Positions 6,960 to 8,736 of a stretch of DNA of 10,930 nt are shown piece after piece. Below the pieces are notes generated by a model. That model saw only the letters and a program-made list of their open reading frames with translations, did no database searches and had not been told where the DNA came from. Source of the stretch: a virus. Taxonomy: Duplodnaviria; Heunggongvirae; Uroviricota; Caudoviricetes. The translations under genes and the position numbers were made by a program. Where the stretch lies: the IMG/VR virus record IMGVR_UViG_3300022592_000245, positions 64,001 through 74,930 of that record, one strand, 5' to 3'. How positions within the stretch are numbered: position 1 is the first letter of the stretch; each line of letters starts with the position of its first letter.

Positions 6960-8736
6960 GAATTTAACAGCAACACAAAACGACTACGCAGTATTTTTGC
7001 CCGCAACATCTGGATTTTATGCTACCTTTATTGGTAGACAGCACTATGGTAACTATGTAGATCCTGCACGTATACCAGCGCCATGGGCAAGTGGTATGGA
7101 CGGGCTTAATTATCTAGAACCAGATAAGGGCGAGTTTTACTATAGATGGTGTTTGTATTCAGCAGGACATGCTAATTTAGATCTCACTAAACCGGATCAA
7201 TGCGAAGATATGTTCCGCAAACGAGACCGTTCAACATCTTGGGTGTTAGGCGACTCGGGCGGATTCCAGATCGGTAAAGGTGTATGGGAAGGTGAATGGA
7301 GAGATCCAACTGGTCCAGAAGTACAGGCTAAAATGGCAGAATGTATTGCCAAAGGCATAGAGCTTGTACCCGTTATTGACGCAACCGGTAACCACGCTCT
7401 TGATAAGAAAGGCAATCCTAAGTACACTAAAGTCGATCACGTTAAGCAATATCAAGCAAAACTTGATGCGGCACATAAGAAGCGTACACAGGTGTTAACC
7501 TGGATGGACACACTTATGGACTATGGTATGGTCCTTGATATTCCAGCGTGGGTTGAACGTAGTCCAGCAGGACGTGCAGCAACTGGCATTACTAGCTATG
7601 ACGAAGCTGTAGACGCAACTAGATACAATAACTCATACTGGATACAACACCGAACAGGTGCTTGTAAGTTTTTAAACGTTTTACAAGGCGAGAATCACGC
7701 ACAAGCAGAAGACTGGTATCAAAAGATGAAAGACTTTTGCGATCCTAACATCTATGGAGATAAAGCCTTTAACGGCTGGGCCATGGGTGGACAGAATATG
7801 TGCGATGTACACTTAGTACTAAAAAGATTAGTTGCATTACGATTTGACGGACTACTTGAAAAGGGTCAACATGATTGGATGCACTTCTTGGGCACCTCTA
7901 AATTAGAGTGGGCTGTTTTATTAACTGATATTCAACGAGCTGTAAGGAAATACCACAATGAAAACTTTACCATATCTTTTGACTGCGCCTCACCGTTTTT
8001 GGCAACAGCAAACGGACAAATCTACATCCAAACAGAACTCACCGACAGACAAAAGTGGGTCTACAGAATGGTGCCGTCTGCTGATGACAAAAAGTACGCT
8101 CAAGACACAAGACTCTTCAAAGACGCAGTAATTCAAGATAAAATTTTTAGTAACTTTGATCCAAGTCCGTTAATTGATCAAGTTCGGATTAATGAAATTT
8201 GTATTTACGGTGCCGGCACACCTAAACCAGGTGTTACAAATCCAGACCCAACAAATTTAAATGATTGGTTAATTCCTCCAGACTTAAACAAGTTAGGTAA
8301 AGTTAGCAATCGCACAAGTTGGGATTCATTTAGCTATGCTATACAAATGGGTCATAATGTATGGAGTCATATCAATGCTGTGCAAACAGCTAACCAAGCA
8401 TACGACAGCAACATTATGCCAGCAATGATGGATACAGTATACGCACATAGAAAGAAAGATTTCTTTTACGACTTGCGTTATTTTAAAGATATGGTTGAAG
8501 CTATCTTTGCAGCAACTACTAGAGACGAAGCAAACAGACTAGTCGATCTTTATAAAAATTATTTTGATACTATTATTGGTACTAGAGGCAATACTGGTAA
8601 CAAAATGACTAATGCAAGTAGTCAGTTTAGTGTATTATTTGACATCGACGAGGACCCTGCTTCAGACGAACATGGTGATGAATTTACTGACGAAGAAATT
8701 CATAAACTTGACGACTTAGAGGATAGTGTAAAATGA
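6952..8736 (+). CDS. dpdA: tRNA-guanine transglycosylase-fold protein, probable DNA 7-deazaguanine transglycosylase (DpdA-like)
   Basis: 594 aa with a TTG start overlapping the DUF2061 stop. TGT motifs DSGGFQ (D101), LDIP (D196), LQG, GWAMGG, HFLG and SFDC (D344). Phage replication context and a downstream QueD-like gene favour a DNA substrate over tRNA. Confidence 0.78.
   Translation: MNKNLTATQNDYAVFLPATSGFYATFIGRQHYGNYVDPARIPAPWASGMDGLNYLEPDKGEFYYRWCLYSAGHANLDLTKPDQCEDMFRKRDRSTSWVLGDSGGFQIGKGVWEGEWRDPTGPEVQAKMAECIAKGIELVPVIDATGNHALDKKGNPKYTKVDHVKQYQAKLDAAHKKRTQVLTWMDTLMDYGMVLDIPAWVERSPAGRAATGITSYDEAVDATRYNNSYWIQHRTGACKFLNVLQGENHAQAEDWYQKMKDFCDPNIYGDKAFNGWAMGGQNMCDVHLVLKRLVALRFDGLLEKGQHDWMHFLGTSKLEWAVLLTDIQRAVRKYHNENFTISFDCASPFLATANGQIYIQTELTDRQKWVYRMVPSADDKKYAQDTRLFKDAVIQDKIFSNFDPSPLIDQVRINEICIYGAGTPKPGVTNPDPTNLNDWLIPPDLNKLGKVSNRTSWDSFSYAIQMGHNVWSHINAVQTANQAYDSNIMPAMMDTVYAHRKKDFFYDLRYFKDMVEAIFAATTRDEANRLVDLYKNYFDTIIGTRGNTGNKMTNASSQFSVLFDIDEDPASDEHGDEFTDEEIHKLDDLEDSVK

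Follow-up and report, generated by a model that had tools for sequence, protein, structure and literature searches.

We analysed a 10,930-nt stretch of phage DNA (the window; positions 64,001 to 74,930 of IMG/VR record IMGVR_UViG_3300022592_000245), which holds a block of replication and DNA-modification genes from an uncultured jumbo phage. The source record is a 74.9-kb fragment, and identical proteins were found on contigs as long as 345 kb. The window encodes a DNA polymerase of the T4/RB69 type, a PCNA/gp45-type sliding clamp and a 594-aa DpdA-like base-exchange enzyme with the predicted fold of tRNA-guanine transglycosylase (TGT). Our data make it likely that this enzyme docks on the phage clamp through a tail peptide of the polymerase type and exchanges guanine on replicated DNA. 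The putative new element is a clamp-client-type peptide on a DNA base-exchange enzyme. A first-pass annotation, made from the sequence alone, had proposed that a clamp-binding-type peptide is common to the polymerase and the base-exchange enzyme, and this core idea stands on the predicted folds, the conservation of the peptide and its co-variation between the two proteins.

In the enzyme gene, bases 8620-8646 encode SQFSVLFDI, whose pattern h-x-x-L-F-[DE]-h is akin to that of NTFNSLFEF; the polymerase gene encodes the latter in its final nine codons, directly before the stop. Translation places both peptides exactly where they had first been noticed. In the AlphaFold2 (AF2) model of the enzyme, residues 541-579 have predicted local distance difference test (pLDDT) values of 42-54, which fits the flexible, probably disordered tail that had been anticipated, and a weak helix is placed over the motif. 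The linker preceding the motif differs in length and sequence among homologues, with insertions of 25-35 residues in some lineages. RB69 gp43 structures match the window polymerase with an E value of 2e-58 (phmmer), the alignment reaching residue 900 of 903, and the polymerase tail aligns by position with the RB69 tail ...KKASLFDM... This tail is kept as NTFN[SNKT]LF[ED]F in 78 of the 80 related loci that contain the polymerase end. In Pseudomonas phage PA5oct, the polymerase gene (L081:2608-7834) is divided into two coding sequences by a Hef-like homing-endonuclease gene, and in several metagenomic relatives a single long open frame contains the polymerase in pieces, suggesting an intein or a homing element.

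The peptide in the enzyme tail is conserved across close and distant homologues, a point on which the first-pass annotation could have failed. Among the 120 closest homologues, 79 carry F..[LIM]F within the last 48 residues, compared to 1.9 expected from shuffled tails, and the same pattern was found in 22 of 104 divergent full-length representatives (2.3 expected); [LIM]F lies within the final five residues in 24 of these 104 (4.0 expected). The motif is thereby enriched 10- to 40-fold over shuffled tails. It is conserved from 83% down to ~30% enzyme identity, the distant lineages including the cultured phages PA5oct, Vibrio phage 2.275.O and Phosso. In several sublineages the acidic tail that follows the motif in the window is gone and the motif is C-terminal (...LNTSLFEF, ...TTFEDLFE, ...NNFMDLFE), as it is in the polymerase. 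The enzyme likewise ends in ...IVNNGLFDF in complete phage genomes of 435-465 kb, in ...KIVEGLF in Phosso and in ...LNNNDLFGW in Vibrio phage 2.275.O. A search for viral loci related to the family members P0284 and P0305 gave none.

The peptides of the two proteins vary together from genome to genome. In 162 genomes with both the polymerase and the enzyme gene, the motif was located by a rule blind to the partner sequence, and the enzyme motifs were reassigned among clades by permutation. For 17 clades (75% clusters), peptides of the same genome were identical at 2.88 of 7 variable positions versus 2.21 ± 0.15 under the null (p = 4e-5), and with 9 clades (60% clusters) the permutation gave p = 3e-4; the clades are nested, so these p-values depend partly on phylogeny and are not exact probabilities. 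Matched pairs of polymerase and enzyme peptides, the former always ending at the stop codon, include TFDSLFSFE and TFDSLFSFGD, FVDDLFD and AVHDIFDS, YIDDIFS and SVDDIFTT, TFESLFA and AHNMLFAA, AFDLLFS and AHSMLFSN, and TFNSLFEIS and VFNSLFEAED. In further pairs the enzyme peptide also ends at the stop codon: KAMKLFNY and KAKSLFEF, ANNTDLFDW and LNNNDLFGW (Vibrio phage 2.275.O), and NNFDSIFEIG and SNFDSIFDIE as well as TVFGNLFEMA and TNFGNLFE, the genes of the last two pairs lying ~12-22 kb apart. The two copies of the motif differ in their codons, including the Ser codon families (TCA versus AGT), so that gene conversion or recent copying between the two genes was rejected and selection for the match at the peptide level is indicated. 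The two proteins thus appear to be under a common lineage-specific peptide constraint, suggesting a common, co-evolving binding partner.

The presence of a clamp at 6025-6756 had been named beforehand as a point that could refute the proposal, and a two-domain PCNA/gp45-type fold was found there by AF2 and Foldseek. The AF2 monomer model has a pLDDT of 87 and a predicted template modelling score (pTM) of 0.86, and all of its top Foldseek matches are to PCNA and span the full length (E 8e-11, probability 1.0, TM ~0.7). The nearest atlas entries of the protein are labelled PCNA or gp45-slide_C, and no sequence match to it (P0003) was found in Pfam or PDB. Every related locus containing the polymerase end has a clamp homologue, and these are 24-88% identical to the window clamp across related lineages. 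The clamp gene lies two genes upstream of the enzyme gene, as first described, with the small DUF2061 open reading frame (ORF) of 67 aa intervening; the order of polymerase, clamp, small ORF and enzyme is kept in PA5oct, whose enzyme homologue (EST35_0316) is 31% identical, whose clamp is EST35_0314 and whose EST35_0315 is a small ORF at the position equivalent to the DUF2061 ORF. In Vibrio phage 2.275.O, the clamp is NVP2275O_465 and the enzyme NVP2275O_468. Two points make the phage clamp the most economical partner: the polymerase is of the RB69 type with an aligned tail, and every genome examined encodes a PCNA-like clamp, the gene for which usually separates those of the polymerase and the enzyme. 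Judged from sequence, the most likely role of the motif is docking on the phage's own clamp.

By its predicted structure, the enzyme is a TGT-superfamily base-exchange enzyme that forms a family of its own. The AF2 model has a pLDDT of 89 (above 90 in the body) and a pTM of 0.89, and the top 50 Foldseek matches are tRNA-guanine transglycosylases only (E 4e-7, probability 1.0). VIA-align superimposed the model on TGT with a Z score of 18.2 over 308 aligned residues at 4.5 Å, and hhalign aligned the family profile with Escherichia coli TGT at 91% probability (E 1e-6), pairing DSGGFQ with DSGGFQ, GWAMGG with GYAVGG and SFDCASPF with MFDCVMPT. In an alignment of 88 divergent homologues, D101, S102, G104 and D344 are invariant, and G103 and Q106 nearly so. 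The modelled TGT fold and the aligned catalytic Asp motifs would fit a guanine-type substrate. The family is large, comprising more than 7,500 metagenomic proteins and at least 870 clusters (representatives) at 50% identity.

At the level of sequence, the relation to DpdA is less direct. The enzyme shares with bDpdA and DpdA1-4 (PMC10516641, PMC10164549) the TGT-superfamily fold and the conserved catalytic Asp motifs, and the DpdA3 gene of phiST, like the window enzyme gene, lies near polymerase genes. Unlike DpdA, the enzyme belongs to a family of larger proteins (540-600 aa) and carries an inserted subdomain at ~residues 120-165. Searches of PDB by phmmer and by profile gave no sequence link to TGT or DpdA, hhalign and the fold search alone providing one. 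The term 'DpdA-like' used at first pass therefore holds for the fold and fails for the sequence, as no DpdA, TGT or DUF6610 model matches. Assignment of the family to DpdA3 was rejected: the family profile matches nothing in Campylobacter phage CP220, a DpdA3 phage, and no CP220 ORF carries a DSGG motif. Most likely, this jumbo-phage family is functionally DpdA-like and has been missed by every published DpdA sequence model.

The surroundings of the enzyme gene fit DNA modification. An association with 7-deazaguanine synthesis genes, as in phages with DpdA, is possible: QueE is encoded six genes downstream of the enzyme homologue in PA5oct, FolE lies ~8 kb downstream in L002, a relative with 75% identity, and a QueD-like PTPS is present in the relative contig G005, the genome of the window itself being represented by a 75-kb fragment. 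The DNA of PA5oct is apparently G-modified, as it resists several restriction enzymes with G-containing sites; the experimental paper reporting this names no DpdA (PMC12191111). For PA5oct, Iyer et al. (PMC7824862) list a system that makes and incorporates deazaguanine. From this context, the substrate is probably DNA and the product probably carries 7-deazaguanine. In nearly all lineages a small protein (~125-160 aa; ...HRHIFHF..., ...EVSEDGENG...) is encoded one to three genes downstream of the enzyme, with full-length copies at L069:12906-13304 and in PA5oct (EST35_0318). It has no Pfam match; the first-pass annotation suggested that it is DpdL/QueD-like, and as the enzyme's most constant partner it is a candidate component of the pathway. 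Four to seven paralogous radical-SAM/SPASM genes stand in tandem in G005 (the contig of L121; ~147.7-161.1 kb) and in L098/L099/L146/L153:60-5100; they are related to a gene of the window's genome (G000:7375-8664) and represent an unusual expansion in these jumbo phages.

Taken together, we propose the following mechanism. A folded catalytic body would be followed by a flexible linker and by the hydrophobic-acidic peptide h-x-x-L-F-[DE]-h, which would insert into a hydrophobic pocket of the phage PCNA/gp45-like clamp. In this way, the enzyme would accumulate on phage DNA that is newly replicated and clamp-loaded, and there the tethered enzyme would exchange guanine. The earlier interpretation is partly supported: folds, conservation and co-variation back the shared peptide, and from these we infer the binding to the clamp, the coupling to replication and the insertion of deazaguanine as the base. 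More tentatively, with the chances slightly below even, the unnamed TGT-fold family might be a further DpdA-type subfamily that rides the clamp by a peptide co-evolving with the polymerase tail and inserts 7-deazaguanine directly behind the fork. The members found so far are from phages with a PCNA-like clamp of their own.

The proposed mechanism has parallels in T4 and RB69, in which the gp45 clients gp43, the late sigma factor gp55 and the co-activator gp33 bind the clamp via C-terminal hydrophobic-acidic epitopes; the client termini can stand in for one another, their linkers are variable and unstructured, and the C-terminal 11-mer of the polymerase has been co-crystallised with the RB69 clamp (PMC2988020). 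The peptide of the window enzyme resembles these epitopes in being short, hydrophobic and acidic and in following a variable unstructured linker, and one of the same type is found on the phage polymerase. As in the gp45 system, the phage encodes its own clamp of the trimeric PCNA-fold type, and the peptide is C-terminal in several sublineages. Unlike the gp45 clients, the carrier is a TGT-fold base-exchange enzyme rather than a polymerase or a transcription factor, the window peptide is internal, an acidic extension of 29 residues that ends in a conserved helix coming after it, and the window clamp resembles gp45 in fold alone, its sequence giving no Pfam match. A similar arrangement is known for eukaryotic PCNA clients with PCNA-interacting peptide (PIP) boxes, such as DNMT1 and UNG2, in which a short motif tethers DNA-modifying or base-removing enzymes for replication-coupled action. 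The h-x-x-aromatic-aromatic-type spacing on a DNA-modifying enzyme is alike in both. The phage motif F-x-x-L-F is, unlike the PIP box Q-x-x-[LIM]-x-x-[FY][FY], without a leading Gln and has Leu at position 7; it is not a canonical PIP box, although its h-x-x-h-F spacing agrees, and homology is not implied.

Among phage DNA-modifying enzymes, the closest parallel is T4 alpha-glucosyltransferase, which co-purifies with gp45 and for which replication-coupled modification has been proposed (Sommer et al. 2004, as cited and re-tested in PMC13216743). Both cases would associate a phage DNA-hypermodifying enzyme with the phage clamp; unlike the T4 enzyme, which glucosylates hydroxymethylcytosine, the window enzyme would exchange a whole base. 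We know of no defined polymerase-like tail motif in the T4 alpha-glucosyltransferase. The first-pass annotation knew of no description of clamp docking for DpdA, and our literature searches likewise found no link between DpdA and a clamp, the T4 enzyme being a related precedent. To our knowledge, no recruitment mechanism has been described for DpdA-type enzymes.

Several observations weigh against the proposal that the enzyme docks on the clamp and exchanges guanine there. The bare pattern is weak: strict F..LF[DE] has three matches in ~24,000 residues of the 75-kb contig, namely the polymerase tail, the enzyme tail and FFNQLFDL, and the last lies in the UDP-glucose-dehydrogenase-like protein, within a folded helix, showing that chance can also produce the pattern (for one match in a 54-residue tail, the probability is ~1%). 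The window motif is internal, 29 residues before the end, and has Val at position -2, not Ser or Asn. About 60% of the divergent family representatives have no such tail, and in a few lineages the motif is decayed (MVNHHFDF, KNLHFEA, WQQNFTK, RNAVFKS). A census of PA5oct and the contigs G000 and G004-G007 found the polymerase and the TGT-like enzyme as sole clear carriers of the peptide, and the nesting of the clades tempers the co-variation statistics. On the enzymatic side, a CxCxxC zinc motif is absent from the translated sequence, whose sole Cys beyond D344/C345 lies in NEICIYG; the family alignment of 88 homologues has no conserved Cys column, and neither the enzyme nor its 88 relatives match any DpdA, TGT (PF01702) or DUF6610 (DpdA4) model in Pfam, NCBIfam, PHROG or PADLOC, so that substrate and product are inferred. 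Finally, the contact between alpha-glucosyltransferase and gp45 is not the main determinant of the modification share in T4 (PMC13216743), a modest effect that serves as a caution, as tethering may matter less than it appears. As an observation of its own, the lineages with a decayed motif (L026, also P0110, L123, L130 and L151) keep a normal polymerase tail and are natural 'mutants'.

The tail that follows the motif had been described as about 28 mostly acidic residues. The length is close, as 29 residues (DEDPASDEHGDEFTDEEIHKLDDLEDSVK) follow the motif, and 'mostly' overstates the composition, 14 of the 29 being Asp or Glu. A helix is predicted at residues 580-593 (pLDDT 65-74, AF2), and the acidic-helix pattern [FW]x[DE]..(D/E)(D/E).L..LE recurs as far as PA5oct (31% identity) and the P0248 clade. 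This helix is absent from the sublineages with a C-terminal motif, which keep the motif without the acidic tail, indicating that the tail is dispensable. The earlier idea that it is a DNA mimic or an autoinhibitor is weakened, because whole sublineages have lost it and retain the motif. The tail could serve as a second contact, as a DNA mimic or as the 'acidic' half of a hydrophobic-acidic epitope.

As the co-variation shows a common constraint and leaves the partner unspecified, other partners were weighed against the phage clamp. Binding of the shared peptide to the host beta-clamp (DnaN) appears unlikely. Bacterial beta-clamp-binding peptides follow the consensus QL[SD]LF, and the short, hydrophobic motif has an S-L-F or D-L-F core like the last three positions of it. 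The window peptides (FNSLF in the polymerase, FSVLF in the enzyme) do not fit this consensus, since Q and L are missing at positions 1 and 2, and only the final L-F is common to both, with S-L-F in the polymerase. In favour of such a contact, use of the host clamp has been reported for phage Mu (PMC12867686); against it stand the PCNA-like clamp that each genome examined has of its own and the alignment of the RB69-type polymerase tail with a gp45-binding tail. Moreover, the motif drifts by lineage (V.DIF, MLFA, NNxDLFxW) in both proteins together, and with clamps 24-88% identical to that of the window, and only 24-58% in the loci showing this drift, a fast-evolving phage partner fits better than the highly conserved pocket of the beta-clamp. 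It is about equally improbable that the peptide binds another replisome partner (the clamp loader, a gp32-like single-stranded DNA-binding protein, the helicase loader or the primase-helicase) or joins the polymerase to the enzyme directly. Several acidic tails serve protein-protein contacts among T4 replisome proteins, and the enzyme gene of Phosso adjoins the primase and DnaB genes. Yet the hydrophobic-acidic C-terminal tail of the T4/RB69 polymerase is specifically a clamp ligand (PMC2988020), the window tail is positionally homologous to it, and in most lineages it is the clamp gene that separates the polymerase gene from the enzyme gene.

Still less probable is that the motif has no shared function, being intramolecular (a barrel-packing helix or an autoinhibitory tail) and matching the polymerase by chance and amino-acid bias. 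The frequency of the bare pattern, with one of the three strict matches on the 75-kb contig inside a folded domain, the weak AF2 helix over the motif and the degenerate versions in some lineages would agree with this. However, the enrichment over shuffled tails, the shift of the motif to the extreme C-terminus behind long, variable linkers, the low pLDDT around it and the genome-by-genome match to the polymerase in different codons all argue against it. Thus, it is conservation and co-variation, not the pattern alone, that raise the motif above chance. We therefore favour docking on the phage clamp over these alternatives.

In these phages, the motif is portable but essentially confined to the polymerase and the transglycosylase, and the census, which gave few other carriers, did not support a general clamp-client tag. 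PA5oct EST35_0220 (MK797984.1 143938-144540; L196:16439-17038) is the C-terminal half of a split 'minimal' Pol III alpha (phrog_11778 and phrog_405), in which an acidic linker is followed by a terminal ...PFKLFS (the protein ends in ...EEEAEQEPDPFKLFS); two close relatives end in ...DDIFSLFFE. As 117 of 120 homologues of EST35_0220 have no such tail, the tail appears to be a recent gain in that lineage. PA5oct EST35_0204 (MK797984.1 128846-130441), annotated as hypothetical, is a T4-type large terminase (Terminase_6N/6C, phrog_36964 5e-123) that ends in an acidic run with a hydrophobic tip, ...DEDDDSMPMPFLF. In a few relatives, MutH/Sau3AI-like ORFs of 191-193 aa lie directly downstream of the TGT-like gene (L027:10512-11084, also L031; L037:12483-13061). 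They have a weak Pfam MutH match (E 0.018) and an ...EVK.R motif, and they end in ...STYVSLFEETV and ...NSTFQDIFSYGN, resembling the clamp-type motif; from these endings, they may be another DNA enzyme that has borrowed the peptide. The same portable peptide may recruit other DNA enzymes, e.g. the mini Pol III alpha half of PA5oct and the MutH-like nucleases. The idea of a tethered pathway, raised by the ends NENLFA of the QueD-like protein of G005 and IKELFE of a radical-SAM protein of the window contig, was dropped, as homologues have no such tails.

The features of the window are listed in Table 1. The UDP-glucose/GDP-mannose-dehydrogenase-like gene between polymerase and clamp lacks the usual C-terminal domain.

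Table 1. Coordinates of the features in the 10,930-nt window
Feature	Position	Strand	Basis or remark
DsbA-like regulator	2189-2446	+	
T4/RB69-type family B DNA polymerase, 888 aa	2537-5203	+	Pfam DNA_pol_B 8e-37; phrog_262 3.5e-198
Polymerase C-terminal tail NTFNSLFEF, presumed clamp-binding epitope	5174-5200	+	Translation; RB69 tail alignment
UDP-glucose/GDP-mannose-dehydrogenase-like gene	5154-5987, start probably ATG at 5205	+	Between polymerase and clamp
PCNA/gp45-type sliding clamp protomer, 243 aa, two domains	6025-6756	+	AF2 and Foldseek
Small DUF2061 membrane-protein-like ORF, 67 aa	6756-6959	+	Pfam DUF2061 1.3e-7; separates clamp from enzyme
TGT-fold base-exchange enzyme, 594 aa	6952-8736	+	
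Enzyme catalytic body, residues 1-540	6952-8571	+	AF2, Foldseek, VIA-align, hhalign
DSGGFQ motif, D101-Q106, matching the TGT active-site Asp motif	7252-7269	+	88-homologue alignment; E. coli TGT alignment
SFDCASPF region with D344, matching the TGT nucleophile Asp (MFDCVMPT)	7975-7995	+	D344 invariant
Flexible linker, residues 541-556	8572-8619	+	pLDDT 42-54; length and sequence variable
SQFSVLFDI, residues 557-565, presumed clamp-docking peptide	8620-8646	+	Translation, conservation, co-variation
Acidic tail, residues 566-594	8647-8733	+	14/29 Asp or Glu
Terminal acidic amphipathic helix EFTDEEIHKLDDLEDSVK, last 18 residues	8680-8733	+	Predicted helix 580-593
Trp-halogenase-like flavoprotein	8733-9953	+	Three small ORFs after it
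Small HRHIFHF protein	10747-10930		Window end

The 2023 survey of DpdA enzymes treats insertion as post-replicative and describes full replacement by DpdA3 as proceeding by an unexplained route (PMC10516641). If our proposal is true, base-exchange hypermodification in these phages would be coupled to the replisome rather than freely post-replicative, which could explain the very high guanine replacement in some phages. For PA5oct-like Pseudomonas jumbo phages, the family supplies a candidate for the 'missing' transglycosylase. Furthermore, co-variation with the polymerase tail, followed genome by genome, makes it possible to recognise clamp-client peptides from sequence, an approach that could reveal further clamp clients in uncultured phages. 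For the phage itself, docking on the clamp would concentrate the enzyme on new, clamp-loaded DNA, favouring modification of phage over host DNA.

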